A DNA stretch of 64,000 nucleotides. Origin: Azolla caroliniana (taxonomy: Eukaryota; Plantae; Polypodiophyta). A program made the translations under genes and the position numbers. The stretch spans positions 5,642,001 to 5,706,000 of the forward strand of contig JBHGNT010000011.1 in assembly GCA_043228905.1 (NCBI GenBank). The letters run 5' to 3'. Positions 668 through 64,000 of this stretch are shown here, in pieces. Under the pieces are notes generated by a model. That model saw only the letters and a list, made by a program, of their open reading frames with translations. It ran no database searches and was not told the DNA's origin. The first letter of the stretch is position 1; each line of letters opens with the position of its first letter.

Positions 668-1476
668 ATGAGGCTCATTTCTTTGTGTTTTTGGTATTTG
701 TCAGGAAGAGGCCCAGAGGGGCATATCCATATAATTAGGTAAAGCTTGGATAAACAAACCAAGAAATACTACTTCTCTGTTCTGTTTTTTTCCCATTCTT
801 TTCCTTTCGGATCTGTTTTGTTTTTTCCTGATTCAGTCAATGGCGGTATGGATTTATCCTGCTACCGTGTGTGATTCCTGTGTTCCCGATTACCCGCGTT
901 CTGTGAGTGAATAAATCCAATTCCTTTCCACATTTCCTGAAGTGGGTTTCATTTCCTTCTTTTTTTTTCTTGTTGATTTTTTTTTTTTGGCCGCGGTTCT
1001 TGTTCCATACCACTTCCCTTTCCTTTTGAGTGATTATTCCACACGATCTGAGGGGTGCGAGTTTTTGCTTCGTCTGTGATTTTCTGAAGTGGGTTTTGCA
1101 GTCGATCTTTTGATAGATCGAGGGTGGATTTTCTTCTTTGCTATGGTGCTGGTCAAAACCACTTGTTTGGAGTGATTCTTAACAGTCTGGTTTTCTGAAG
1201 TGGGTATGTAATTGATCTGAGAGATAAAAATGCTGGGTTTGATCAAAACCACTTTCCTGTAGTCATTAAATTCCACATGTATTAAGGTGGTTTTCTGAAC
1301 TTGATTCCGATCGAAAATCACTTGTTTTGAGTGGTTACTCCCACATAATCAGAGAGGTAGGCCTTTTCTTATTAGTGATTTTCTGATTTGGGTATTGATC
1401 TACTTTCTTCCAGTGATTATTCCCACATGATCTAGGTTTCTTTTTCTTCATTTGTGATTTCAGCAGAGAGAGAGAG

Positions 1477-12721: not shown

Positions 12722-15700
12722 TGTTGGAAGCGAGGTCGTGAATGCGGAAGATCGAGAAGCATTCGATTGCTGTTGAGTACCTGCGTATGACAGTTTGTAG
12801 GTCGTTGCACAGAGAGAGAGAGAGAGACAAAGAGGCACAAAAGACTCTTTATTCCTTAAAGCAATAATACAACATCCAACCTCACAAAGAGGTTACAAGG
12901 TCACTATATATAGTGACCGACTTAGGGCAATTACCCTTTATGCTAATTACATAAATGGCCAAAGACGAGATAGTGTGAATACGTCCATTATACACATGTA
13001 TTCGACACTCCCCCGTAATGGGCGTATACATGGGTTATCTAAGATTACAGGTATAGACTTAGGTTCTCGGACATATCAGCTTTGTTCGGGTCGGCAGGGT
13101 CCGAAGGCAGAAGACCGAACTGGTCGGGTCGGAACAGTTGAAGCCGATCATTGAGGAACTGATGTCGGTTGTCGGGAACCATCCTGCTCTGTGTCCGGCT
13201 CTAACCGGACTGGTTTGTCGTTACGCCCATCTGATGCCGAAGAGACCGAAAGCGGTCTGCCGAAAGACACTTGGTCATTCCATCTGCGACATTGTCGGTT
13301 GTGGATATTTTCTCTAGACCGATTTTCCCTGAGATGACGCAGTCCCGAACGAAGTGATATCGAACGTCGATATGTTTGGAGGCGTTGTGGTGAACCGGAT
13401 TTTTCGACAAGGCAACAGCACCTTGACTGTCGCTGTAGACAACTGGAGCCGAGTCATGGTCGACTTGTCGAAACGTGTGCGCCAGCCGACCGAGCCATAA
13501 AGCTTCTTTTGCTGCGTCGGACGCAGCTACATATTCTGCTTCGGTCGTTGAGGTCGCTGTGCACTCCTGGAGTTTCGACTTCCACGAGATTGCTCCATTG
13601 CCGAATTTGAAGCAGTATCCGGTTGTTGATTTCCGACTGTCTATACAGCCGGCGAAGTCCGAGTCGGTGTAACCGACTACGCCTGAGGTTCGGTTCGGAC
13701 CGAAAAGAATGCCGTGGTCTTTTGTGCCAACCAGATATCTGAACACATGCTTGACTGCGTTCCAATGCGATCGGCCAGGGTTATGCATAAATCTGCTAAC
13801 GACTCCTACGGCGTGAGAAATATCAGGCCGTGTCGCGACCATCAGGTACATAAGGGAGCCGACTGCCGGTGCATACGGTACCGACTTCATATCTTCCCCC
13901 TCCGGACCGGATGTCGGGCAGTCTCGCTGAGAGAGCCGAAGATTCATAGGGAGCGGGGTTGAAGCAGATTTGGCTGATTGCATGTTGAAGCGTTCTAAGA
14001 CACGTCGGATGTAGTCGGTCTGAGACAGAAAAAGATGTCGTGTTTCGCGATGCCGACTGATCTTCATGCCGAGTATGTGTCGTGCCGGACCGAGGTCCTT
14101 CATGGCAAACTTCAACCGCAATTGCCGAATGAGATCGGCAAGTTCGCCCGCGTGGCGTCCAGAAATTAGCATGTCGTCCACGTAAATGATGAGGAAGATG
14201 GGTGATCCATCTTGAGCTGTGTTGGTGAAGAGACAATGGTCCTCATCGCTTTTGGAGAAGCCGATCGATTGGATGAAGTCGTCGAACTTCTTGTACCATT
14301 GTCGCGGTGCCTGTTTGAGGCCGTATAGACTCTTCCTGAGTCGGCAGACTAGATGTTCTTGGCCAGTTGCCACGAAGCCTTTTGGCTGCTCCATATAGAT
14401 TTCCTCGTCAAGATCACCATGGAGGAAGGCTGTTTTGACATCTAGCTGAATCAGCTCCAAGTTGTCGGCTGCCACTACGCCGAGTAGGAAACGAAGGGTT
14501 GTCATTTTCACCACTGGTGAAAAAATCTCGTCGAAGTCGACGCCATATTCTTGTCGGAAGCCCTTCGCAACTAATCTGGCCTTGTACTTTGGGGTGGTCG
14601 AATCAGACGTCTCCTTTAGTCGATAGACCCACTTGCAAGGAAGAGCACGTCGGTTCCTAGGTAATTCGACCAGATCCCAAGTCTTGTTTGCCCGAATTGA
14701 GTGCATTTCCGACTCCATCGCCAGATGCCAGGTGGCTGAATCGACAGATGTCGATGCTTCTTCGTAAGACGTCGGTTCGCCGGCGTCGGTGAAGAAAATT
14801 CCAGGAGAATACCTCTCCGGAGGTTGCGACAGTCTCTCGGATCGTCGAGGTATGATTGGACTGGTCGCATCGGGTATCAAGGTCGGATGGTCCGAAAGCG
14901 GATTGTTCTGCTGTGCCGAGTCGGGGTTGTCCGAGTCGGTAGTGTAGGGTTCAGCTACCCGTGAAGCTGACCGTGTGTTGAGAGCGGGGCCGTCTTGAAG
15001 GGTCGGCACATCGGAAAATGTTACCCTTCGGACTTCGATCGGTTTTTCGACTGATGGATTCATAGCCGACTCGTTGAACACAACGTCCGAACTTCGAACG
15101 ATTTGTCTGCGTTCGGGGTCCCAGAGTCGGTATCCCATTTCGCCGTCGGATCCATATCCAAGGAAAATGCATTTCCTGGACCGAGGTGCAAGTTTTCGGC
15201 GATCATCTTTCGGAATAAGGGCGTACGCCTCGCATCCGAAGATCCTCAGCTTGTCGTAATTCGGCTTACTGCCGATCCATAGTTCCTGAGGAATTTGAAG
15301 TCCTAGAGGTCTACTTGGCGACATATTGATTATGTGTACTGCCGTGAGTAGAGCCTCTGCCCAGAAGCCATCCGACAGTCCGGAGTGTTGGAGCATGGAA
15401 ACTATCCGTTCTTGGATTGTCCGATTCATTCGCTCTGCAATCCCGTTTTGCTCCGGACTGTGTGGTGCCGTAAATTCACGTCGGATGCCGCGTTGTCGGC
15501 AGAATTTGACGAATTCTTCGGATTTGAACTCTCCCCCATTGTCTGTCCGAAGGCATTTCAGCTTTCGGTCGGTGTGATTTTCTACCATAGCGAGCCAATC
15601 GGAGAAGATCGAGAAGACCCGATCTTTGGTGCGAATTGGATAAGCCCACACCTTTCGAGTCGAATCGTCAATAAAAGTGACGAAGTAAGAGGCACCGCCT

Positions 15701-18173
15701 AGAGACTGATGCGGCATTGGGCCACAGACGTCCGAATGGACTAAATCGAGAGGTCTCGTTTCTCTTGGTGCTGATGTCGGGTGTGATGCGGCTGCCTGTT
15801 TGCCATACTGGCAATGCTCGCAGAATTGGTGGTCGGAGAAGGAGAGTTTGGGGATGTATCCGGCTCTAGATAGGTGCGTGATGCCGGCCTTGCTGAGGTG
15901 TCCTAATCTTCGGTGCCATAGTGATGACACAGGAATATCCACCAAGAACAGGTTACCCTCTCTGAGCGTAACATGTAACGGATACAGTGAGTGTATCTTG
16001 GGTCCTCTAGCAAGCAGGAGGTTCCCCCTGTGGAGTGTCCACCCTCCCGAAGAAAAACCGGCACGAATGCCGTCTTCATCTAGTTGTCCGACTGAAATCA
16101 ATGGCCTTGAGAGCTCGGGTACATGTCGGACATTGTGGAGTACAAGTGTAGAGCCACCTGCAAGGTTGAGCTCTACTGTGCCGATTCCGATGATGTCACA
16201 GTGTTGTGAGTTGCCGACCCGGACTGAGTCGGAGTGACGGATCGTATATTGTCGAAATTGGGATCGATGAGGAGTCACGTGAAATGACGCGCCCGAATCT
16301 AAGAGCCATGTGCTCGATTCTTCAGTCGTGAGTAGAGCTTCTGATCCGACTGGATTTTCGATTGATAGTATATTCGGGTCGTCTGGTAGTACATCAGCTG
16401 AGAAGCTGACGTAATTGACCTCCTCATGCCGGCCACTCTTCTTGTTGTTCTTGTTCTTGAGTGCGCGGCAGTCGGCTTTGATGTGTCCGGGTTTCTTGCA
16501 ATAGTTGCAGATTCGGTTATCCCGTGACTGGCTCCGTCTTCGCTGATTGTTCGGCGGCCGTGAGGAATCTCTTCCTCGTATGTTCGATCGGTCTGTCGAA
16601 CCTTGTACTACGTAAGCGTCGTCTGTTGAGTCTTTGGCGAAAGACTTTCTCCGAGCTGCTTCGGTCAGGATTGCGCTCGTGACTTCGGAGTATTTAACAG
16701 CCGTGGTTGACGCGTTGCACACGGTTGTGACGAAAGTTTCCCATGATGAGGGAAGGTTGCTCATGAGTATCATTGCTCTGAGTTCATCCTCGATTGCCGT
16801 CCCCTGAGATGAGATTTGGGAGCTTATGCTTTCGTACTCATTGAGGTGTGCTTGAACCGAATCGGATTCTTTCATCCGCAAGTTGTAGAGGCGCCGGATC
16901 AGAAACATCTTCGTTGCGGCGACCTTCTTTTCGTAAGTGTCCGACAGTGTTTTCCACAGTTCGAATGCTGTCGTACACGATTGCACCGTAAAATATACCG
17001 ATTCCGATAGGTGCATCCGAATCGTGGCGCGGACGATTCTGTCCAGCTTCTGCCACTCATTTGGTTTGTATCCTTCTGGAGGTTCTTCATTTTCGATGGG
17101 ATCGATTTGCCCCTTGACTATGAGATAGTCCTGCATTTGTTCCTTCCAGAAGTTGAAGTTCGATCCATCGAACTTTCGTAGACTCATTTCTGACGAGCCG
17201 GATGTTGATGCCATCAAATTCGGTTTTGGTTGACGAAGCTCGGTTCGGAGTTGACTACGAACCTTGTTGGAGTGCAGCCGGTTGGCTCACCCGATATCGT
17301 TCTAGTCGGATTTGAACCCGAGTCGGTTCGGCTTCGGAACTTGCTCGAATTGACTCCGGTAGCTTGAGGGACAGAACCGACTGGTCTTCCCGAATGTTGC
17401 CGAGTCGGAGTGAGCCCGGTTCGCTTCGGATATATATGCCGAATACCGATTATTAAAACCGATTATCTCGACCGATTCTGCTTCGGTTGACTGCAGCAAC
17501 GAGAGAGACGGATCCAACTGATCCTCTCGAGAGTCGATCAGCCAGATGAAGCACGAATTTGGGGTTGTTATCTTGAGACCGATCTGCACCGAGTGGTTAC
17601 AACGAGCAGCGTTTGATTACCTCTTCGGATGCCGTTTAACCGAGTGGAGCACGATCGTGTCAATGTTGCACAAGGGGATTTCACCTCGAGCGGTTACGAT
17701 CACAAGGAACAGAGTACAACCTGATGGCTTACTCCAAGCAAGAGGATCTAACGCGATGAGGTGCAAACCTCGTTTTTGTTCTTCTTCTCTCTTTCTTCGA
17801 ATGACGCGAATACTGTGCAGGCCGTGATGAAGTGAAGAACCGAATGCTATGCAGGCGGTGATGACGGCCGAACGCTCTGATACCAGATGTTGGAAGCGAG
17901 GTCGTGAATGCGGAAGATCGAGAAGCATTCGATTGCTGTTGAGTACCTGCGTATGACAGTTTGTAGGTCGTTGCACAGAGAGAGAGAGAGAGACAAAGAG
18001 GCACAAAAGACTCTTTATTCCTTAAAGCAATAATACAACATCCAACCTCACAAAGAGGTTACAAGGTCACTATATATAGTGACCGACTTAGGGCAATTAC
18101 CCTTTATGCTAATTACATAAATGGCCAAAGACGAGATAGTGTGAATACGTCCATTATACACATGTATTCGACA
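12722..18173 (-). mobile_element. Intact full-length Ty1/copia LTR retrotransposon
   Basis: Two 286-bp TG..CA LTRs (12722-13007, 17888-18173) that read identical by eye. CTGCT TSD at 12717-12721 and 18174-18178. tRNA-iMet PBS TGGTATCAGAGC at about 17874-17885 (-). PPT at 13008-13015. Single uninterrupted polyprotein. Confidence 0.97.
13201..17217 (-). CDS. Copia gag-pol polyprotein (Gag, CCHC, PR, INT, RT, RNase H)
   Basis: 1338 aa: CNYCKKPGHIKADC, WLLDSGAS, HRRLGH..CEHC, VHSDVCGP, LRTDNGGEF, NGIAERMNRT, LDVKTAFLHG, IYVDDML, YTDSDFAG, ADGMTK. Confidence 0.97.
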   Translation of the reverse strand: MMASTSGSSEMSLRKFDGSNFNFWKEQMQDYLIVKGQIDPIENEEPPEGYKPNEWQKLDRIVRATIRMHLSESVYFTVQSCTTAFELWKTLSDTYEKKVAATKMFLIRRLYNLRMKESDSVQAHLNEYESISSQISSQGTAIEDELRAMILMSNLPSSWETFVTTVCNASTTAVKYSEVTSAILTEAARRKSFAKDSTDDAYVVQGSTDRSNIRGRDSSRPPNNQRRRSQSRDNRICNYCKKPGHIKADCRALKNKNNKKSGRHEEVNYVSFSADVLPDDPNILSIENPVGSEALLTTEESSTWLLDSGASFHVTPHRSQFRQYTIRHSDSVRVGNSQHCDIIGIGTVELNLAGGSTLVLHNVRHVPELSRPLISVGQLDEDGIRAGFSSGGWTLHRGNLLLARGPKIHSLYPLHVTLREGNLFLVDIPVSSLWHRRLGHLSKAGITHLSRAGYIPKLSFSDHQFCEHCQYGKQAAASHPTSAPRETRPLDLVHSDVCGPMPHQSLGGASYFVTFIDDSTRKVWAYPIRTKDRVFSIFSDWLAMVENHTDRKLKCLRTDNGGEFKSEEFVKFCRQRGIRREFTAPHSPEQNGIAERMNRTIQERIVSMLQHSGLSDGFWAEALLTAVHIINMSPSRPLGLQIPQELWIGSKPNYDKLRIFGCEAYALIPKDDRRKLAPRSRKCIFLGYGSDGEMGYRLWDPERRQIVRSSDVVFNESAMNPSVEKPIEVRRVTFSDVPTLQDGPALNTRSASRVAEPYTTDSDNPDSAQQNNPLSDHPTLIPDATSPIIPRRSERLSQPPERYSPGIFFTDAGEPTSYEEASTSVDSATWHLAMESEMHSIRANKTWDLVELPRNRRALPCKWVYRLKETSDSTTPKYKARLVAKGFRQEYGVDFDEIFSPVVKMTTLRFLLGVVAADNLELIQLDVKTAFLHGDLDEEIYMEQPKGFVATGQEHLVCRLRKSLYGLKQAPRQWYKKFDDFIQSIGFSKSDEDHCLFTNTAQDGSPIFLIIYVDDMLISGRHAGELADLIRQLRLKFAMKDLGPARHILGMKISRHRETRHLFLSQTDYIRRVLERFNMQSAKSASTPLPMNLRLSQRDCPTSGPEGEDMKSVPYAPAVGSLMYLMVATRPDISHAVGVVSRFMHNPGRSHWNAVKHVFRYLVGTKDHGILFGPNRTSGVVGYTDSDFAGCIDSRKSTTGYCFKFGNGAISWKSKLQECTATSTTEAEYVAASDAAKEALWLGRLAHTFRQVDHDSAPVVYSDSQGAVALSKNPVHHNASKHIDVRYHFVRDCVISGKIGLEKISTTDNVADGMTKCLSADRFRSLRHQMGVTTNQSG

Positions 18174-18980
18174 CTGCTCCCCCTGCATAGGTCACCACGT
18201 ACCCTGACGTGGATTGACTTGATTCTACATCCCCCGACATGTCTGATTCGGTAAACCCTTCGAGTATGGGTTTTCCGACCCCATACTTAATACACACCCG
18301 AGTTGCCTTTTAAGTACCTGAGTATCCATTTCACCGTTGCCCAGTGTTCTCGTTCTGGATTACTCATGTATCGGCTTACTGTTCCCACAACAAAAATTAT
18401 GTCTGGTATCGTGTAGACCATAGCATACATTAGACTATCGACAACTGAGGCATATGGTACTTTCCTCATCTCATCCTCTTCTTTCTCCCCTCTCAGGCTT
18501 TGCTTTGCATTTAGCTTGCAGTTAGTCGGTAACACCGAGCCGACCGGCTTTGCTTCCGACATGTTGAATCTTTCTAGGATCTTAGTCACATATTTCTCTT
18601 GTGACAGCCACAACACTTTCTTAGTTCTATCTCGAACTATGTGCATCCCTAAGATCTGTTTAGTCGGTCCAAGAACTTTCATGGCAAACGTTTTTCCGAG
18701 ATCTTTCTTCAAGCTTTTGATCTTCCTTGTATCTTGACTGACTATCAACATGTCATCCACATATAACGAGAGAATCAAGAAGTCACCTTCATCATACCTT
18801 TTGACGAACACACAATGATCAACATGTGTTTTCTGGAGCCTATGTTCCACCATGAAGGACTCAAACTTCTTGTACCATTGGCGTGAAGCTTGTTTCAACC
18901 CATACAAGCTATTCTTCATTCGACACACCAGGTTCTCTTTCCGTTTCTCCACAAAATCTTTGGGCTTCTACATGTAAATC

Positions 18981-43968: not shown

Positions 43969-46900
43969 TGTCAATAATTAGGTGATGAATTAAGGGTTAT
44001 TTAGTAATTAATTATGTGAGTAGTTAATCACGTATGTGATTAAGTAGCGAAAAATTATGTGATATGTGTGTGTGTGTGTGTGTATGTTCGTGAGAGGAAG
44101 AGGGAGAGGAAGATACACTTATGAACAATAAGATAAATAAGGGATGATTAACGAGAGTTTCGCTAAAGACTTTTCCCTATATTAATGAGCATTATCAAAT
44201 ACAAAAATACCCACAATGAGGTATATATACATCTCATGTGCGAAGGTGCACATGTGTGAGTAGAATATAGGTACAAAGGTGTAAGTTCTATATTAAATGT
44301 ACTTGGGAGTGGAGGATCTAGAATGTATCCCACTTACTTAAGTACATCATCATATTTAAGGCTTTATATTCAACACTTCTATCTAGGTAACTACTAAGTT
44401 ACTTGATTAACTAAATGTCTAAGCTTAATTGAGCTTGATATCTCAACACGCCCCCTCAAGCTCAAGTGTGAGGCGTCCGACTTTCGGCTTTTGGCTTTCA
44501 TCCTTTCCAAGGCAATTTATGTTCCTCCCCCTCAAGCCTGTGACGAAGGTTTGTGAAGTTAGAGGGTTGAAGGTCGAGTGCTTCCATCCGTCGTGGGTCA
44601 TGAACAGTCACTACCTTCATCGTGAAGGCATAATGATGGGCCTTATACTCATTGTAGCCGAACCGAGTGACCGCGTTCTTCTCTCGTGATGAGCGCCGGA
44701 GTTTTTCACTTGCCGATGTGAGCGCCTTCTTTACTCCGGGTTCCGCATGATGGGTACACCAAACTCACTATCTAGTGAGGGAGCCAACACATCTAAATCA
44801 TTGTCATCAAGGTGGTCGACTTCATATTCGGGCATCTTACCTTTGCCTTTGTCCAATTTCGGACTTGGTCGCGACGTGCTTTGGTCGCGTGAAGGCTCAT
44901 GTGGGCCACTTAGCTTGGTAGAGCTTGGATTGTCCTTTGGCAAAGGACTTGGCCGAATATCGTCATCCGAGTTTACGTTTAACTCTTCCTCGGTCGGGCT
45001 GAATGGAGTCGAATTGGGCTCATACCACGATGTCGATTCGTCAAAGACTACATCCTGACTCACCCGAACCGCTCGAGTTGAAGGGTCGAAGCACTTGTAT
45101 GCCTTTTGCTTGGACGAGTATCCTACGAGGATACATTTCTCCGACTTCGCCTTGGGCTTCTGTCTTTTTTCACCCGAGATGCGTACATTCGTAATGCTTT
45201 CGAACACTTTGAGGTGTGACAGGATCGGCTTCCTTCCAACAAGGAGCTCGTATGGAGTTAACTCATGCACTCCATTAGTGGTACACAGATTCATGAGATA
45301 GACGATTGTGGTTGCTACTTTGGCCCAATAGAAGTTTGGCAGGTGCTTCTCGTGCAACATGGCCCCTGCTACCTCAAGTATATGCCGATTCTTCCTTTTG
45401 GCTACTCCATTTTGTTGGGGTGTGTGTCGACATGAGAATTCTCTCTGGATGCCTTCACCTTGGACGTAGGAGATGAATTCATCAGAGAAGTACTCCTTGC
45501 CTCCACCAATTGTAGGCATCGAATGTGTCGACCGGTTTCTTTTTCAACTTAGCTCTTGAGCTTTTGGAAGTGGGAGAGTAGTTTGCTCTTCTTCTTCATC
45601 GGGAAAATCCACGTGTAGCACGAGTAGTCATCAATGAAGGTGACGTCGTACCGGCATCCTCCGATCGTCGGCATTTGGGTTGGTCCCCATACATATGAGT
45701 GGATGATGTCAAGGAGGCCTTTGCTTACGTAGCTCTCCTTTAGAAATGGGAGTCTAGAAACTCATTTATTATTTCTATAGGAAATTCATGTATATTGTAG
45801 ATTACTCTAGAACATTATAGAAACTTCAAGAGTAATCTTGACAACACTATAAATAGAGGCATAAGGCATTATTTTGAACCAATTCGGTTCAACGCCTGTC
45901 TTAAGCCTCATAGCTATTCTTGTATATTCTCTTCATATAATATATTGTTTGTTATCATCATTCTCTCTCTCTCTCTCCTCTCGAGATATCTACACCCTCC
46001 TTCTCTCTTAGTACTAATTCTTATCTCTAGTACTAATTCCCTCTCTGTCTTAGTACTATTCCTGACAGTTTGAACCAAATTACGTTGTTCTCATCTTCGT
46101 ATCTCTCATTCCCTTCATACAAATCTTCTTATCCATCCTTCCTCCAATATTATGGCAATTGTTAGCGTTCAAGAATACCAATCTGTCCTCTCAGAGTTGC
46201 AGTGCTTGAAAGAAAAGTTTGTAGCACTAGAACAAGAAAATCAACGGTTGTTGGGGGATCTTCAACAAATCTCTCTAGAGATGTAGCAAATGCAACAACA
46301 ACACGGAGAGTTGGCATTACGTGTACAACAACTTGAAGCAACCATTGTGTCCTTACAACAACAGGGATCAAGTACTCAAGGAATTCATAAAGAACCCAAT
46401 ATCGGTCTTCCTACAAAATTCGATAGAACGCAGTCACAATTCAGGGAATTCCTTAATCAGGTATGTCTTGTGATTCAAATGCATCATTCCCGATATCCCA
46501 TCGATGCATCACGAGTGGGATTAGTAGGCACGTTGCTTAAGGGCCCAACTTTGGCATAGTTTGCACCTTTATTAGAACAAATATCTCCATTGTTAAATAA
46601 TTTTGAGGAATTTATTAGCGAGTTTAAAGCCTGTTTCGGGGTAACCAATAATGTTAGGACGACAATCAATAAAATCCAAAGATTGCGTCAAGGTGATCGT
46701 CCAACCTCAGCATATATTGCGGATCTCCGTCTACTCGCCGTCGATATTCCCAGAGATGATCTAGCATTGATGGAGCAATTTCGATGGCCTTCGATACGAT
46801 GTTCGGAACGTCAATTACAAATGCCAAGAACAAGGTCGGAGCACACATATGCCTCAGTCGTAGCAAAACCATTTGCAAGGGAGTCATATAATGCAACTCC

Positions 46901-49900
46901 AGTAAATACTCCAACCCTGATGGAAATCGACACTACACGTCGTCACAGACTGTTATCGGAAGAGGAAAAGCAGCGACGCCAAGCAAATCGATTATGTCTT
47001 TATTGTGGTGGACCGGGGCATATTGCAGTAAATTGACCCTATAGGCCAAGAAGACAGGTAAATCAAATAACCGCTAGTACTAATAATATTAAGCCCGAGT
47101 CTATTAGGAGTGTTTGATAATTCCAATAGCCCAAGCTTATCAAACAAATTTGAAGTCCTTAGTCAACTAGAAGAAGAGTTAAACGACTAAGTCCAACCAA
47201 AATAGGAGTTGTTTGGTTGGACAACCCTAGATCTGTGCAGCCCATTAGTAGTTCCATTCTCTCTAAGCAAGTTAGCAATGTCTTCCTAGTTCAAGTAGCT
47301 ACTAGTACTAAAAGTATCCCTCCAGTACATGTCTTAGCACTCCTATATTCCGAATCTAATTCTTGCTTCATGGATAAGAATTTTGCCCAAGCTCATCAGA
47401 TATCCCTAAGAAAACTCCCTTGCCTAGCCTCTATAATAGTCATTGATGGTTGCCCCATTGCTTTCGGAAATATCGTAGAAGAGTCAGATCCAATTAGTGT
47501 TGTCCTAGATAATTTGGCATGTGTAGTATCATTCAATATAATTAGTAGTCCAGAACATCTAATTGTTTTGGGGTTACCATGGTTCAAGTTACACAATCCA
47601 GACATGGATTGGAGAACAAGAGAAAACTGGTATCGACAACCTCGAGAATCTACTCATAAGGTTTCAACCATTTCGCTACATCAACTACGCGAGGAAGGAC
47701 ACAAGGAATCAATGTTTGTATTCGCAGTAACAATAAAACCTTCCAGAACCACTAAAGAGGAATCCATAGTTCAACTTCCAGAATAGTATCTTCATTATGC
47801 CGGCGTGTTTGATAAGGTACAAGCCAATATTCTTCCTCACCATCGACCGTATGATTGTCCCATTGATTTACAACCAAGAAAAGAGCCACCATGGGGACAA
47901 ATCTACAACTTGTCACCAACCAAGCTAGAAATCCTTCGAGAACAGGTTGCCCGCGAGGGGTCAATTTGCGCTAGAATAGCTTGAGTGAAAGCGTCTGTCT
48001 TTAAGTCTTCAACAACCAGGTACGGACTATCGACAATTCGAATGTCATGATGGATTACTATTCTTTAAGAAACTCTTGTATGTTCCCAATGGTAAACATT
48101 GGATTTAGTACAATGATCATTTTGGTGGCCTCATATGCAACGATTTGTCGAAGACTATGTTCGGACATGTGATACATGTTGCAGAGCAAAGATGCCAAGA
48201 CATCATCCATATGGTTTATTGGAACCATTACCAATTCCAAGCAAGCTATGGTAGTCCATTTCTCTAGATTTGATCACAGATCTTCTAGTTTCAAAGGGAT
48301 TCGATGTGATCTTAACAATAGTGGATCGATATACTAAGATAGCAATCACTAGTGAAGAAACCACTGAAATTGTCATGTGTGAGGTATTTCAGCATTATGG
48401 CCTCCCGGATAGTATCATTAGCGACCGTGGACCTCAATTCGTCTCGAAATTTTGGAAGCCTCTCTTCAAAATGCTCAAGGTCACTTGTAACCTCTCCTCC
48501 GGCTATCACCCTCAAACAGACGGCCAAGCAGAACGAACAAATCAAACGCTGGAAGAGTATCTTCGATGTTTTCTAAGCTATCAACAAGATGATTGGGTGG
48601 ATATTCTCCACTTTGCCGAATTTGCTTATAATAACTCTATCCACTCATCGACTAGGGTTACACCATTGTATGCTTATAAAGGCTATCATCCTTGATTGTG
48701 TGTGTTCGAAATTCCGGAGTTACCCACAAATCCTCATGCAGAGGATTATTTGGAGTGGCTACGCAAGATACAAGCAGACCTATCTACCCATTTACATCAA
48801 CCTCAACAAACACAGAAGGCTTATGCGGATCGTCATCAGCTTCCATCCTGTTTTGACATTGGAAATCGGGTATGGCTATTACGATGACACATCAAGACTA
48901 CTCGACCATGCGATAAATTGGATTATCGAGGATTAGGTCCTCTTTCCGTATTATCGGAAAAATTAATGATGTCATTTTTCTTCTTGATCTACCTCCGCAA
49001 CTACGGTTACATCCGGTTTTTCATAGTTCTCTTCTCAAACCCTATCAAGATAACACTATTCCAAATCGTATTACACCACCTCCACCCCCGATCGAGCTTT
49101 AAGCAGAGGACTGGAGTACAAAGTTGCTGCCATCTTTGATTCCAAGATTTTTCGCAACAAGCTCTACTATTTGGTCGATTGGTTAGGCCAAGCGAGCGTA
49201 CTTGCGAACCAGTCAAGAATGTTGCAAATGCTTGAGCTCTTATTCAGGACTTCCATCGACACTATCCCGACAAACTAGGTCCTCCATCTAAGACGACTCG
49301 TAACACTCGTCGTCTTTGGGGGGGGGGGGGGGGGGGGGGTAGTGTCGTGATATGGCATGGTATGGCTCCAAAAGGATTCGAACCCATGACCTTGTGTTAC
49401 GCAGGCTGAACCCTTGCCATTTAACCATGAATTGTAATACGAAAGATATTAGTTTCATTTATTGTTTCTATAGGCAATTCATGTATATTCTAGATTACTC
49501 TAGAACATTCTAGAAACTTCAAGAGTAATCTTGACAACACTGTAAATAGAGGCATAAGACATTATTTCGAACTAATTCAGTTCAACGCTAGTCTTAAGCC
49601 TCCTAGCTATTCTTGTATATTCTCTTCATATAATATACCGTTTGTTATAATCATTCTCTCTCTTTCCTTCTCTCGAGAGTTCTACACCCTCTTTCCCTCT
49701 TACTACTAATCCTTATCTGTAGTACTAATTCCCTCTTTGTCTTTGTACTATTCCTAACACCTTTGGCATACATGGCCGATTTTACCTTGTTCGAATCGAG
49801 AATGAACATCCGTCTCTTCGTCCCCTAGCAATGAGTCAGTCACCTTTTTCTATAAAGCATCCTTCGTTGTTGAAACGAACTTGCATGTCTTGCTCCACGA

Positions 49901-56297: not shown

Positions 56298-56542
56298 GGA
56301 AGATCGTGGCCGACCGAGGGGAGTTGGATGCGCAAGAAGGTGAGGAGCTATTCAACCGACGAGGGGTCAAGCTTTCCCTCACGATGACATATAATCTGGA
56401 GGAAAATGGCAAGGTCGAATGAGGGAACGGGCCGATCGTGAAGGCGATAGTGTGAGCATGCGACGGACGGGTCGAGAACTGGCCGCAACTTCTCCCTTAT
56501 GTGCTATGAGCTGACCAGACTACGCACGGTTTGGTAATCAGG

Positions 56543-56645
56543 TGTCATGAAGACATACATTTTGTCTTATCAGGAGTCGAACCCACAACTTCTTGGTCTA
56601 TGTGTTGAACCTTTAAGTTTCAGCCTTGCGACCATACCTCCCCCA

Positions 56646-56677
<32 letters not shown>

Positions 56678-56761
56678 TTGCAGAGTCATCAATATAACAT
56701 CCGCCAATCCCTAGTCGATATTGTTTACGATTGAGACTACGACAGTATTTAATCGTCTTCA

Positions 56762-56818
<57 letters not shown>

Positions 56819-56819
56819 A

Positions 56820-56851
<32 letters not shown>

Positions 56852-57504
56852 TTGACAATGAAATACGAATGCTCCCAATTGTCCCCATTAATCATTACTT
56901 CGGTCCTGAAGACCAAAACAATACGACCAGAGTCCTATCACATTATTCCATGCTAATGTATTCAGAGCATATGCTTGCTTTGAGCACTCTAATTTTTTCA
57001 AAGTAACATCGTTGAATCCGTATCCCGACCAGTTAAGGATAGAAGTGTGTCCCCGACAAAAAGGACGGCGCAACCAGTGCACACCAAAGAGGTAGACCAC
57101 TCGCCCCGCCCCGAGATCCAACTACGAGCTTTTTAACTACAATGACTTAAATATACGCTATTGGAGCTGGAATTACCAGGGCTGCTGGCACATGGTAGGA
57201 TCAACCATGTATACCATCAAAGAAACTTCACATCATATATGTTATTACAATGAAAAAGGGGGATAATGTCCTGAAAACATACATTTTGACTTATCAGGAG
57301 TTGCCACACAACTTCTTGATCTATGTATTGAACCTTTAACCATTGTAATAACATATATAATGTATAGTTATAATAATTATATTTTTAGTGATTTCAAGAT
57401 ATTTGGAATATTCTAGAACATTCTAGAAACTCCATAAGGATCTATAAATAGGTGTTTATACATTCATCACAACTCATTCGGTTCAAATTGTCGTGACTCG
57501 TGAG

Positions 57505-57542
<38 letters not shown>

Positions 57543-57916
57543 TCGGAAATGGAAATGATATTATATTATGAGAAAACAATGTTAAAAAGAGCAGGCTTAA
57601 GGGCTAAAGACTGGTGTTGAACCGAATGAGTTGTGATGAATGTATAGACACCTATTTATAGATCCTTATGGAGTATTCTAGACTGTTCTAGAATATTTTA
57701 GATATTTATGATAATAAATATAATCATGAAATATTCAAGAATGTTTCAGAATAATCTAGAATGTTCAAGAATATTCCAAATATCTTGTAATCACTAAAAA
57801 TATAATTATTATAACTACACATCATACATGTTATTACAATGGTTAAAGGTTCAACACATAGACCAAGAAGTTGTGGGTTCGACTATTGATAAGCCAAAAT
57901 GTATGTCTTCATGACA
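56543..57916. mobile_element. Composite insertion with inverted LTR-U3 termini carrying an 18S rRNA fragment
   Basis: Ends are TGTCATGAAGACATACATTTTG... and ...CAAAATGTATGTCTTCATGACA. Flanks are TCAGG/TCGGG. The host integrase frame is restored when the insert and one flank copy are removed. Confidence 0.85.
56610..57191 (-). pseudogene. 18S rRNA fragment (V4-V5 region), dispersed and diverged
   Basis: The reverse complement runs from GTGCCAGCAGCC..GTAATTCCAGCTCCAATAGCGTATATT to GGTCGCAAGGCTGAAACTTAAAGG. It has substitutions in universally conserved motifs and no flanking rDNA. Confidence 0.93.
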
Positions 57917-58634
57917 TCGGGTACATGCCAACTAAACTTATGTTCAGACAGAAGCCGATCATGCTGGTAGAAAGGAAAATAGCATCGTGGATGGCGGTCG
58001 ACTGGGCGGACGAGATGAGTGGGGAATAACTGTTGGCTACGCGGATCCGACAGCTCGAGAGATGATTGGAGGATGTGGAGCGAGCAAGGGCAAGGGTGTA
58101 GGAGGTGAGGATGAAGAACAAGGGACGGTTCTCGACCGAACGCACCGACTAAGGTAATTGGGTGTTGGTCTACAACAACAACCTCGACAACCAGCACCGA
58201 TCGACACGGAAATTCGCAAGACAGTGGTTCGGGTTATATGTGGTGATGAGCGCCAACGACAATGCAACATACCATTTGGTGGAAGCTCGACGGGACGAGG
58301 ATAGCCGTACCGATCGTGGGGAAGCGAATAAAGGCCTTCACGAAGCAACACGAGTTGAAACCGGATTTGGAGGTGGAGGAAGAGGATGCCGATGAGGATT
58401 AGACTGACGACGGTTCAGGGGAGGACAATTAAGGGACAATCTGAATCCCCACTGCTTCATTAGATTGGCACATACTGTGGATGATGTGCGGTTTGGTGGG
58501 GGATTCCGGCCACAAGGAGAAAACTCGTCGGATGCGTGTGAACGGGGGTGTGTAGGGATGCACATGAACGGAGTCTTATGTATATAAAGTGTGTAAATAT
58601 CGAAATAATAAGAGGACAGGACAAAGATAGTCAA

Positions 58635-59080
58635 TGTCATGAAGACATACATTTTGGCTTATCAGGAGTTGAACCCAAAACTTCTTGGTCTATGTGTTGA
58701 AACCTTTAACCATTGTAATAACATATATAATGTGTAGTTATAATAATTATATTATGAGAAAACAAGGTTACAAAGAGTAGGCTTAACGACTAAAGACTGG
58801 TGTTGAACCGAATGAGTTGTGATGAATGTATAGACACCTATTTATAGATCGTTATGGAGTATTCTAGAATGTTCTAGAATATTTTAGATATTTATGATAA
58901 TAAATATAATCATGAAATATTCAAGAATGTTCTAGAATATTCCAAATATATTGTAATTACTAAAAATATAATTATTATAACTACACATTATATATGTTAT
59001 TACAATGGTTAAAGGTTCAACATAGACCAAGAAGTTGTGTGTTTGACTCCTAATAAGCCAAAATGTATGTCTTCATGACA
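58635..59080. mobile_element. 446-bp MITE-like element with about 117-bp inverted termini derived from LTR U3
   Basis: TIRs 58635-58753 and 58965-59080 match the LTR at 57489-57916. Flanks are GTCAA/GTCGA. Confidence 0.85.
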
Positions 59081-61594
59081 GTCGATTTGGGTATTTTAAC
59101 GACCCACATAAAGAGGGGAGGAATGACATTGTGTGATGGTAGAGAATCAATGGGAAGATCTTTGACCGAAACAACTGTCGTTACTTTTGATGTAACGGCC
59201 TCCCCTTGTGCTATAAAAGGGGAGGTTTGAAACTGGAAAGGGGGGTCATCGTTTGGGGGAGGTCGAATTGTTGTCGGTTTGAGCTCTTAGTAGAGGGGAG
59301 GAATGACATCGTGTGATGGTAGAGAATCAATGGGAAGATCTCTGACCGAAATGGTTGTCATTACTTTTGATGTAATGGCTTTCCCTTGTGCTATAAAAGG
59401 GAAGGTTTGAAACTCTAAAGGGGGGGGTCATCGTTTGGGGGAGGTTGAAGTGTTGTCCGTTTGAGCTCTTAGTTTCCAATTTCTATTCTGTCATTTCGGT
59501 GTGCTAGCGTGAAGCCTCTGTTCGCGTAGGAAGCCCATGTGCTCTCGATCAGAGTCTCACCAATGTCTATGTGGGTGCGTGAAGATCTCGAAGCTCTGTT
59601 GTCGGTCAAGTCTGGTTGTATTCTTCTCTATTATTGATTAATTGATTAGCTTTGTTGTATCCGGTGGTTGTCTCTGTGACTCCCTACGTTGTTCTCTCTA
59701 TTTAGGCATGCATTCCTATATCTGCTTCCATCCGTTTGCGTGTTTTCTGAATCTCTGAGCCCATGTGCTCATCGTCCGGAATCTAGTGACAGGTTTGGAT
59801 CAGATCGCGTTGTGGGCCCGTGCACCTGTGAAGACATTTGGTTAATCCCTCTTTGTCTCTCCCTCTCTCCCTCTCTCTCCAGCTCCTTAGTTCAAGGCCT
59901 TGGTGGTCCCGTCCTGATCCAACACGTACCCACGGAATAAAGCGACAATGTGTGAATGGGTGGCGCCTAAAGAAGTCTGTGAATCATGGAACTATCTACA
60001 TTTTTATAATAGATAAGGATATTCAAGAAATCGATGATTGGTAACAAGAACTTGTCCCCAACCATATTCCCCAACTAATTCATAATCTTTGTTTGTTTGG
60101 TAAGAGGGAAGATTGTAATATCATTGGCATGTTTTAAATTTTTGTTTCTGTAGCAGTGTGAGTTTTGTTTTCTAGTGCTTAACAGGGAGTTTTCTCACAC
60201 AATATTTTGTTATATATATTTTATTTATACTCCTTTGTCTATAGCCTACTAGAAGGTGAAGGAGTTTTTTCATCTTCTTTTTTAGGCTCACCATAAATGA
60301 TTCACTCAACAAGCAAGGAGGGGGACTAAATGTGAAATCAATCTTTGTTTGTAAGAAAGACTCTTGCAAATATGTTGGATGCTAAGATATCTAATAATAA
60401 AGAGCAATATGAAAGGATCAAGTATTAACATAGGAAGGAACTTGAAGGGATATAAAGTTAGAGGTATTTTTCAAAAGTAGAAAAAAGCAGAAAAGAAGAA
60501 GAAAAAAGCAGGAAAAAAGATAGAAAAACCAAGGCATGGATATGAAGATTTAGGTAGAGAAAAAAACTCATAACTTCTTCCAAATTTCAAAAGAAAATAT
60601 GTATAAAAAAGCTGATAACAAGAGCTCTCCAAAAAAGTTTTTTATGATAAATTTGGGATGACAAAGGAGAAATAGTGATATAAAAAAATGCCTCACATAA
60701 ACTTGAGGATATTTAAAAAGGAAATAAAAGAAAACAACAATAATAACGCAACTAAAAACCTATAAATAGGAGGAGGTGGAAGAATAAGAAGTGAGAAGAG
60801 GCTTAGTAGAAGAAAAAGGAGAAGAAGGAATGACTATTATCGACTAGAGTCATCGAGTTTAAAGTAGTTCTTTGGTGTTGTTATTTTTAGAGTCTAAGAA
60901 GTTTGTATTGTTTTCCCAATAGTATATTGAAGTATTCTTTTCTCTTTCTCTTTCTCTTCTCTTCTCCATCATTTTTCTATCTCTCTTCATCAGATCATAG
61001 TGTTATTGGGCTATCCAATTCTAGCACGGCTTGAGCTTTGGCATTGTCGGTGATGATAAACGAGATCTCTTGTACCGTTATCACCTATGTCATCCCCTCC
61101 TCTTGATGTTCGTATCTGTCAATTGGGGTCTGCCATGATAACCAACATACATCCCCCACTTGAATGTGCCTTGCACCTGGCATAATTGCTATAGTTGACC
61201 AACCCCCCACCATATTCAATGGGTCTTTGGGTAGTCCCACAGAGTGTGTCAGATTGATTCTATTGCATTGGATAATAAATTTCTTGACCACAATACATAA
61301 AATTTGACGGACCATGACCTTACACGTTTGATAGATGAGTATCACATGTGATCAATTTGCTCATGATGCGGAAAGCAAATGTTAATATACAATGAGATGA
61401 CATTAATAAACATCGCTATTCGCTCTTGCATTTGTTATGTACAATACGGGGTCCCAGAGTTGGACTTAAAGGGCTAAAACCACATACGTGGGCACTCCTT
61501 GCATTTTATGCTTGAAGTGATTGGATCATGCTTTCCAGTCAACAAACATGGTTGAGCCTCAGGGAGCTGCCATGGTCATTCGATATAGAGATAA

Positions 61595-61989: not shown

Positions 61990-64000
61990 ATGGTCAGAAG
62001 GGGTGCCTTGTTCATCCGTGGTCCTTCTCCAAAGCTTCTTCTTCATACTGCTTCTTCTTCTGTTTCCAGGTATGTCAAGCTTCCTAGGTGTAAATAAAAT
62101 CATGTTCGTGTTTGGAGGGTTTCAGGGTTTTATAGTTTTAGGGTTTAAGCTTTAAGCTGTAATGTTTTAGAGCTGCATGGTTGTATGGTTTAATCATGTT
62201 CTATGGATGTCATTTCCCTAGGTTAATGTATTATTATCTAATGTGATTATTTAGGGTTTAGGGGAGCTTTAAACAAGGTTTAGAGAAGGTTTAAGATTAA
62301 GGATTGGGGGAAAGTTTAAGTAGGATTTAGGGGAAGTTTAGGGCTAGGATTCAGGGAAGTTTACCGTTCCATGTATGAGATCTTCCTATGTTTAACTGTA
62401 TCATTATCTCATGTGATAATTTGGGTTTTATGATTTAAGAAGGTTTACGGTTTAGGCTAATAGTTGGGGTTTAAAAGTTATACTTTTGCACGACCCAACA
62501 GCTCAGACTGCAGTATAACTATTCGGGAATTTAAAGCTCTATGTAAGCAAGGTCATCTTCATAGTGCGATTCGCATCCTTTACTATCTAGAAGAACAGGG
62601 ATACCAGAAGAGCTCATATACATATGTATGCCTTTTGCAAGGATGCACTCAATCTAATGCCTTAGAAGAAGGCAGGCTTATTCATGGTGATGTTGTAAAA
62701 CATGACCTGAACCCGAATATCTTCATCTCTAGTACAATTATTCATATGTATGCTCGATTGGGTAGCATTGAAGATGCTCAGGTTGTATTTGATGGTATGC
62801 CAGAACGGAATTTGGTCACATGGAGTACTATGATTGAAGCTTATTGCCAACATGAGAAATATGAAGAAGCACTTGATGCTTTCTTGAGGATGAGAAAGGA
62901 AGATTTGGTACCTGATCTGGTCAACTTTGCTAGTGTTTTCAAGGCTTGCGCTGGTCTCAGAGACCTTGCAAGAGGGAAGACTATTCATGAGCTCCTGAAA
63001 AGAAGTGGAATCAAGGCAAATAATATGTTGGGAAACTCTCTCCTCAATATGTATATGAAATGTGGTAGTATGAACGATGCAAGGGAAGTGTTCGATAACA
63101 TGGAAGAAAGAGATGCAGGGTCTTGGAGTATTATCATTTCAGGATATGCAAAGAATGGAAATGCGGGTGAAGCAATGCGTTTGTTCCAGAACATGCAATA
63201 TTCTAATATAGAACCTGATGAAGTGACATTTTTGAGTATCTTAAATGCATGTGCTGTAATTGGAGATTTGGAACAACTGAACAAAATTTATGATCACATC
63301 AAGAAGAGTGGAGCAAAACTTAGCAATTTCACATGGAATACACTCATTGATGTGTATGCCAAGTGCGGCAGCTTAACAGATGCTCAAAATCTTTTCCTAG
63401 AGATTATGGAACGAGATGCTGTTACTTGGAATGCAATGATTGCAGGGTTGACCAAGCATGGGCATCACGGAGATGCTGTAAGGTTGCACGGACAAATGCT
63501 TATGGAGGGAATTCATCCCGACCCAGTCAGTTTTGTAAGTGTTCTCAATGCTTGTACGGCATCTGAAGACTTGGAATATGGCCAGCGGATCCACTCACAA
63601 ATATTCAAAAGCAAAGATTTTGTCAATGTTTTCGTGGAGAATGCTCTCGTTGATATGTATGCAAAATGTGGAAGCCTAACCACTGCGCGACAAGTGTTCG
63701 AGAATATGCGTAAGCGAAACATTGTCTCTTGGAACACAATGATAGCTGGTTATGGCAAACACAGCCTTGACCATGATGTTTTGCTACTCTTTGAGCGGAT
63801 GTGTGATGAAGGTGTGAAGCCAGATGAGTTCACATATGTAAGCTTGCTCAATGCATGCTCTACAATAGCAGCGTTAGAGCCAGGGATGCAAAGTCACCAT
63901 GACATTCTAATGAGCAATCATGAATTTGATGTGTTTGTGGGGAATGCTCTTATTGACATGTATGCGAAATGTGGGAGGATCATGGATGCTAACAAAGTCT
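61990..64000 (+). CDS. PLS-class pentatricopeptide repeat protein (probable organellar RNA-editing factor), 3'-incomplete
   Basis: Exon 1 is 61990-62069 (MVRRGALFIRGPSPKLLLHTASSSVS, transit-peptide-like; start codon uncertain). GT-AG intron 62070-62501. The open frame then runs to the window end with repeated motifs (IHMYARLGSIEDAQVVFD, NMYMKCGSMNDAREVFD, VTWNAMIAG, NALVDMYAKCGSL). Confidence 0.9.

Follow-up and report, generated by a model that had tools for sequence, protein, structure and literature searches.

Inverted LTR insertions with two U3 ends and a junction at a predicted self-priming site in Azolla caroliniana

How does an LTR retrotransposon family give rise to insertions that carry the same U3 terminus at both ends, in inverted orientation and within a single target-site duplication (TSD), and how does a piece of 18S rRNA come to lie between the two arms? 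We addressed these questions in a 64,000-nt stretch of Azolla caroliniana DNA (hereafter the window), which is plant DNA rich in nested, decayed copia and gypsy copies and which contains two such insertions 0.7 kb apart, units A and B (Table 1). Also present in the window are a young copia element (12722-18175, with LTRs identical over 288 nt and an open Gag-Pol frame of 1361 aa) and two intact-looking host genes, one for a multiple-C2 protein with a PRT_C domain (1417-4410, 997 aa) and one for a PPR protein (62500-64000, cut by the window end).

Table 1. Features of units A and B, their host and a direct-LTR relative, in window coordinates. All LTR positions are numbered on the complete 428-bp TG..CA LTR at 57489-57916 (minus strand).
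Feature	Position	Strand	Identity or basis
Host: decayed Ty3/gypsy integrase region and 3' end, split by unit A	56298..58550	+	
Unit A, left TSD copy, TCAGG	56538..56542	.	flank comparison, empty-site contigs
Unit A, left arm = U3 start, LTR 1-74	56543..56616	+	71/74 identical
18S rRNA fragment, Rfam model positions 564-1150	56610..57191	-	Rfam RF01960
18S rRNA nt 1-19 = mature 5' end, abutting position 564	57193..57211	-	17/19
12-nt stretch between 18S nt 1 and the LTR 76-104 piece	57212..57223	.	
LTR 76-104, sense opposed to both adjacent U3 pieces	57224..57252	-	27/29
Polypurine tract, 14-15 nt	57252..57266	+	L003 comparison; C-termini of P0012, P0014 and P0017
Inner arm, LTR 1-300 = U3 and predicted first 11 nt of R	57267..57486	+	204/219
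Family primer-binding site (PBS): 2-nt spacer after U5 and 11-nt complement of LTR 290-300	57476..57488	-	
Complete 428-bp LTR, TG..CA, TATA at LTR 257, CT repeat in U5	57489..57916	-	
Unit A, right TSD copy, TCGGG	57917..57921	.	
Same host: probable 3' LTR, TG..CA, after purine tract, split by unit B	58551..59836	+	limits inferred
Unit B, left TSD copy, GTCAA	58630..58634	.	
Unit B, left arm, LTR 1-118	58635..58753	+	112/118
Unit B, right arm, LTR 1-357	58746..59080	-	318/335
Unit B, right TSD copy, GTCGA	59081..59085	.	
Relative R: decayed chromovirus with direct LTRs, normal-architecture control	45762..49759	+	

Unit A (56543-57916) is a real, single insertion, because a TSD surrounds the whole unit only, empty-site paralogues exist, and its flanks belong to a single host frame. 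Both outer ends are exact U3 starts of one LTR family, and the 5-mers adjoining them match at four of five positions, for which the chance is 1.8% (matches of at least 4/5 in 200,000 random draws of window 5-mers); the 4-bp and 6-bp registers do not match. Across 12 spans tested for a 5-bp TSD, a 4/5 match was found only around whole A and whole B, with one transition in each, while the flanks of nine inner pieces and of the span from A to B matched at no more than two positions. Serial nesting of LTR pieces is thereby rejected, as 0/9 inner pieces have a TSD of their own. Translated alone, the left flank of A is integrase-like (E 5e-5 to chromovirus Pol) and the right flank is integrase-like at E 0.06 only; the two share one reading frame when the 5-mer is counted once, with several stops in each. 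In empty-site contigs, eight from public run X1 and eight from X4 (together one sample), the match to the right flank continues to the left of 57918 as left-flank-like sequence, in which the 5-mer occurs a single time. Support for the left half of A comes from the window sequence together with these empty-site contigs, and among the matches listed no contig carries the own junctions of A or B. The initial annotation, made from the window sequence, had read the locus as a two-U3 structure inserted as one unit, had taken TCAGG/TCGGG for a 5-bp TSD whose removal restores the host integrase frame, and had named an empty-site host paralogue as a check; each of these points is borne out, in a host decayed on both sides.

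Much of the internal anatomy described at that stage also stands, including the complete minus-strand LTR, whose U3 start forms the right terminus of the unit, the left-end U3 (then given as 68-74 bp) and the 18S fragment. Other parts needed revision. The opposite-sense LTR piece is present but measures 29 nt instead of 24 nt; the U3 of the inner arm is present but has a previously unmentioned 79-nt deletion with direct repeats at its borders; and the approximately 35 nt that had been left unassigned include the first 19 nt of 18S, so that 12 nt remain. A 2-nt AT separates the inner arm from the complete LTR, and neither unit A nor unit B contains an open frame of at least 100 aa.

The 18S fragment scores 360 bits (E 2.9e-105) and carries substitutions at conserved positions, and its junction with the left arm is a microhomology in which the final 7 nt of the arm double as 18S sequence. 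The adjoining 19 nt, compared with the start of the Rfam consensus, form the sole site in the window, on either strand, with at least 14/19 matches; the chance probability is about 1e-6 for that gap and about 1e-3 when any 18S 19-mer is allowed. A TGCCA-like word lies at both sides of the jump from position 564 to nt 19. Since the cargo stops at the mature 18S 5' end, its sequence points to rRNA rather than rDNA as template, an argument that would weaken if the following 12 nt were 5'ETS. CpG dinucleotides in the 18S piece are not depleted (23 observed vs. 25 expected). Those 12 nt have no match longer than 12 nt in the 64-kb window or in 17 metagenome loci of the family, and may be untemplated, 5'ETS or copied from a third template; neither they nor the LTR 76-104 piece show a clean microhomology.

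Which element supplied the LTRs? The parent is predicted from its sequence to be a self-priming chromodomain Ty3/gypsy family of Tf1/sushi (Tcn1) layout. At locus L003, the 3' LTR is preceded by a purine tract and a chromodomain remnant (Pfam Chromo, E 2.5e-5, 24.5 bits, just missing the cut-off of 25.1), which is 83-90% identical to the end of protein P0012, with RT, RNase H, integrase and Chromo domains; the C-terminal residues of P0012, P0014 and P0017 read across the purine tract into the LTR start. At locus L009, the 5' LTR is followed by GT, the complement of its own LTR 290-300 and a pyrimidine-rich leader. LTR 290-300 lies 33 nt after the TATA start, with LTR 290 as the R start being predicted from TATA spacing alone. 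Contigs from normal copies (six in X1, six in X3) depart from the sequence of A exactly at 57476 into leader-like sequence, which implies a priming site of 11 nt. The direct-LTR relative R has the same layout at the PBS as L009, with 46070-46081 complementary at 11/12 positions to 45881-45892 in its own 5' LTR, and the named relatives of its integrase, among 120 matches listed, come from chytrid fungi, Xenopus and Planoprotostelium, a range in keeping with the Tf1/sushi (Tcn1) group. Of the three duplexes in that group's 'pretzel' fold of the 5' UTR, folding gives a central duplex in both L009 and R, and flanking helices of which one appears in R and none clearly in L009, both copies being decayed. 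ARAGORN calls no tRNA in the window. Relative R itself is nested in copia sequence and has a 5'-truncated 5' LTR, a large RT/RNase H deletion and a run of 22 G at the purine tract.

A PBS that pairs with the beginning of the element's own R is described for the Tf1/sushi group and the plant Tcn1 clade (PMC6317226, bioRxiv 10.1101/2022.12.06.519325). In the account of PMC6317226, plant elements of this clade are reported only from mosses and club-mosses. Self-priming sites are not reported throughout the clade, none having been found in SM-Tcn1 (PMC2864245). For SM-Tcn1 and Tcry1, 5-bp TSDs are reported (PMC2864245, bioRxiv 10.1101/2022.12.06.519325). The family studied here shares with Tf1/sushi and Tcn1 chromoviruses the chromodomain Pol, the self-R PBS, TGTCA-type ends and 5-bp TSDs, and differs in that descriptions of their insertions cover solo LTRs and direct-LTR elements, whereas units A and B are inverted two-U3 structures.

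Two further features of the U3 were observed. The region corresponding to LTR ~139-246 (57670-57780) is an imperfect internal palindrome of TTCTAGAA-type units, blocks of which are often gained or lost among copies. On the antisense strand of U3, box-like words in tRNA spacing occur at 56565-56620 in the family of unit A and, most clearly, at 49360-49435 in R; these words, which we take to be A-box- and B-box-like, are possibly a tRNA-derived polymerase III promoter or an insulator.

The inner inversion of unit A starts exactly at the 11-nt self-priming site. Read on its minus strand, the unit runs through the LTR, the 2-nt spacer, the 11-nt PBS, antisense U3 and the purine tract, with the PBS running into antisense U3 in place of the leader. 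Likeness to the 3' internal sequence of the family, as seen at L003, ends at the 5' edge of the tract, and beyond those 14-15 nt the family's upstream coding end is absent from A. Between the inner arm and the outer LTR, 14 of 121 positions differ, compared with 3 of 74 between the outer arms, and the deletion in the inner arm, between the same repeats, is also found in other copies (joint 57697-57779, depth 859, X1), so that two molecules are likelier than one hairpin. A same-molecule hairpin also goes unsupported by whole-strand folding of LTR plus PBS, in whose minimum-energy structure the pairing of PBS and R start is absent; the isolated duplex of the two has -12.9 kcal/mol.

A 76-base stretch across this junction was compared with four public runs (three samples at most); the wider contig comparison has no coverage at the U5 end because of a dinucleotide repeat. 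The inversion junction recurs in diverged contigs: among the 32 of 284 matches described, at least three contigs start in antisense U3, cross the PBS and continue in U5. These are X1 record 1 (7 differences from A, depth 205, reaching 28 letters past the U3 edge), X3 record 17 (13 differences, depth 8.9, from a run labelled as another organism) and X5 record 32 (depth 350, with 3 differences over 48 letters and reaching 18 letters past the priming site). They cover the junction, and neither a far end nor a TSD; X3 record 17 alone extends at least 31 letters on either side of both edges, at a depth similar to that of other long single-locus pieces. Joins of this kind cannot arise from an 11-nt repeat when contigs are assembled from 31-mers. 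In X1 and X2, and thus in two studies, a loose end at 57482 continues as an antisense U5 end of L009 type, a sequence that implies a further inversion variant. Strand changes were found at none of at least ten joints listed within LTR 1-345, so that junctions of the type of unit B are uncommon there or unlisted.

Unit B (58635-59080) belongs to the same LTR family and shows a second way of joining two U3 ends, as its arms meet at an 8-nt microhomology (58746-58753). Its outer arms differ at 5 of 116 positions, which, like the 3/74 in A, is about 4% and makes the two insertions similar in age. The probable 3' LTR in which B lies belongs to the element that A interrupts. It has no second copy in the window, and contains a 180-bp tandem duplication (59112-59473, 90% identical). 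Scanning metagenome contigs with an LTR-start pattern gave the 17 loci mentioned above, whereas genome contigs of viruses and prokaryotes contained no match to it. None of these 17 loci matches the host flanks of A or B. One of them, L014, has inverted arms in a 164-bp unit on a low-coverage contig, with no TSD. The interiors of A, B and L014 are all different; one of the three carries cargo and none carries coding sequence. TSDs were seen on A and B and on none of the sampled normal copies of the family, and the complete solo-like LTRs L005, L011 and L016 (0/3 with a TSD) are possible mis-joined repeats or products of inter-element recombination. Loci L004 and L009 have an identical 25-nt left flank and different LTR sequence downstream, and represent either one site sampled from two genotypes or an assembly mis-join. 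The earlier proposal of an aberrant two-U3 cDNA inserted in the manner of an integrase is thus supported, with recurrence in unit B, in L014 and in the diverged contigs.

What process could yield such structures? We put a probability of roughly two in three on the reading that units A and B are integrated two-U3 products of unfinished plus-strand cDNAs that primed on each other. In a family that primes itself, as predicted here, plus-strand strong-stop DNA would run U3-R-U5-spacer-PBS and end in the 11-nt PBS, and this end could pair either with the minus strand, its proper partner, or with the R start of any plus strand. Upon failure of second-strand transfer, plus strands might then prime mutually, either at the PBS or wherever short sequences happen to match, and sometimes via an RNA packaged along with them. 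For unit A, in the order of steps that we infer, a PBS end would anneal to a second plus strand still bearing its purine-tract primer, and extension would copy that strand back to the 5' edge of the tract; a further plus strand would switch from U3 nt 74 to 18S rRNA via the 7-nt match, copy the 18S to position 564, jump to nt 19 and run on to the RNA 5' end; and the LTR 76-104 piece would join both growing strands. Unit B could derive from two plus strands joined at the 8-nt match, or from an A-type product that lost its hairpin tip. The two-U3 product would then be inserted, likely by the element's own integrase, to which a second U3 end should be suited, since the U3 and U5 ends of the family form near-perfect inverted repeats over 8-10 nt. 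A purine tract without upstream coding bases suggests a template resembling a plus strand with its primer attached; in work on Tf1, primers are reportedly retained on the cDNA. On this account two-U3 units would be recurring dead-end by-products and not a replicating family.

Other routes to the same structures were weighed against this one. A U3-containing read-through RNA, cut after R nt 11, might have acted as an over-long self-primer that the plus strand later copied, giving LTR, PBS and antisense U3; the priming site would still be the cause, and the inverted arm would be copied from RNA. The same junction is predicted, as is a separate template for the inner arm (in keeping with the 14/121 differences), but nothing would make a read-through RNA start just where the purine tract starts, a tract ahead of a PBS-bearing LTR requires a tandem parent, and unit B and the left arm of A stay unexplained, making this route an unlikely one. 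There is likewise only a small chance, in our estimation, that the pieces were joined after reverse transcription, whether by microhomology-mediated end joining of cDNAs with 18S cDNA or rDNA as filler or by a later chromosomal rearrangement. The microhomologies of 7 nt (left junction of A) and 8 nt (unit B) would suit end joining, the adjacency of LTR 1-74 and 76-104 is what an in-place inversion would leave, and a nest of decayed elements is a setting for rearrangement; yet exact U3 starts stand at both outer ends within one TSD, no inner piece has one, the main junction falls on the priming site and recurs, and the 18S piece extends to nt 1 and contains a jump. For unit B, this route may nonetheless apply.

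The remaining alternatives concern what the recurrence means. An amplifying non-autonomous family with terminal inverted repeats (TIRs), MITE- or Ginger-like, derived from an LTR and mobile as a unit, is brought to mind by the TG..CA ends, TIRs and 5-bp TSDs, which recall Ginger2/TDD, and by the junction depths of 205 (X1) and 350 (X5) against single-locus depths of 35-47 and about 10-20, which suggest several near-identical copies, depth not being copy number. We consider such a family very unlikely, given that A, B and L014 all differ in their interiors, that the units have no coding sequence, and that neither a 3' R nor a purine tract in sense orientation would be present in a unit transcript. 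Nor do shared junctions demonstrate amplification, as the initial annotation had supposed they would, because a fixed priming site would yield the same main junction in each independent event without descent; its view that an LTR family had been turned into TIR-type, cargo-carrying elements is likewise unsupported so far, with cargo in a single unit, nothing encoded and no re-mobilisation seen. Sequencing libraries are known to suffer from in-vitro fold-back where short inverted repeats occur, and fold-back chimeras might inflate the high-depth junction contigs, just as the absence of the own-copy junctions of A and B among the contigs listed would be expected of an artefact of library or assembly. 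This explanation is hardly credible, however, for units whose arms are about 4% diverged, whose TSDs each contain a transition and, for A, whose empty sites are found, and the junction in X3 record 17 differs by 13 letters and lies at single-locus depth.

If mutual priming of plus strands is indeed the source, an odd insertion becomes linked to one defined detail of replication. In an element with a self-primer, the 3' end that serves second-strand transfer can also pair with the element's own plus strand, and repeated mis-priming of this sort appears to have left its record in the genome. Two-U3 cDNAs would then be predicted in Tf1 particles, and inverted LTR pairs within one TSD across fungi, fish and non-seed plants, where LTR finders that require direct repeats would list them as two solo LTRs. 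Units A and B themselves look inert. Two-U3 units are nonetheless a possible source of long hairpins against the family, and bioRxiv 10.1101/2024.07.25.605110 names inverted LTR copies lying side by side as a source of hairpins. More tentatively, and as a possibility of which we are doubtful in its full extent, self-priming could exact a cost in every Tf1/sushi-type element, with a regular share of insertions being TIR-bounded, TSD-flanked two-U3 units, with hairpin RNA from these silencing the family, and with a unit that captured an integrase reaching the Ginger1 architecture in one step.

Set beside known systems, units A and B share with canonical LTR insertions their TG..CA ends, a TSD of the 4-6-bp class and, for A, an empty site, and depart from them in having U3 at both ends and no direct LTR pair with a U5 end. 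Penelope-like insertions with inverted pseudo-LTRs and twin-primed L1 insertions also place inverted arms within one TSD by reverse transcription. These are target-primed, however, without an integrase, TG..CA ends, a purine tract or a PBS, unlike A and B. DIRS-1 resembles A and B as a retroelement with inverted termini, and to our knowledge makes no target duplication. Inverted terminal repeats are described as its normal form in PMC7192593, which also gives it a tyrosine recombinase and an internal complementary region, in both of which it differs from A and B; a DIRS-type element was rejected, as A and B contain no 100-aa frame and their arms come from an integrase-encoding family. Ginger1, Ginger2/TDD and GingerRoot are reported to have TG..CA termini, TIRs of 40-270 bp and 4-6-bp TSDs (PMC2836005, PMC6839031). 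They encode an integrase-like transposase and move as DNA, whereas A and B encode nothing and show no sign of excision; a Ginger/TDD or MITE-type transposon was rejected as well, there being no transposase gene and no common interior across A, B and L014. A Gypsy origin of Ginger1 via two opposed LTRs has been proposed, through a chain of events left unclear (Bao et al., PMC2836005), and the two-U3 products would offer a single-step route from direct to inverted termini at that very step.

The cargo finds its nearest likeness in LTR-mediated retrocopies (Derr 1991, Wang 2006 and Tan 2016, as reviewed in PMC5470649). According to that review, the reverse transcriptase of LTR elements switches to cellular RNA and back at short matches, and several such switches generate chimeras with LTR sequence on either side. 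Cellular RNA is joined to an LTR at a microhomology in A also (7 nt), but retrocopies hold their cargo in an element of normal polarity, whereas A carries rRNA between two U3 ends, and its switch departs from plus-strand U3. A literature search in which subscription journals were thinly covered found no prior account of two-U3 inverted insertions at a self-priming site, and a two-U3 insertion as a by-product of self-priming is apparently undescribed so far. Template switching and retroelements with inverted ends are already known; the apparently new part is the pair of U3 ends joined at the predicted self-priming site.
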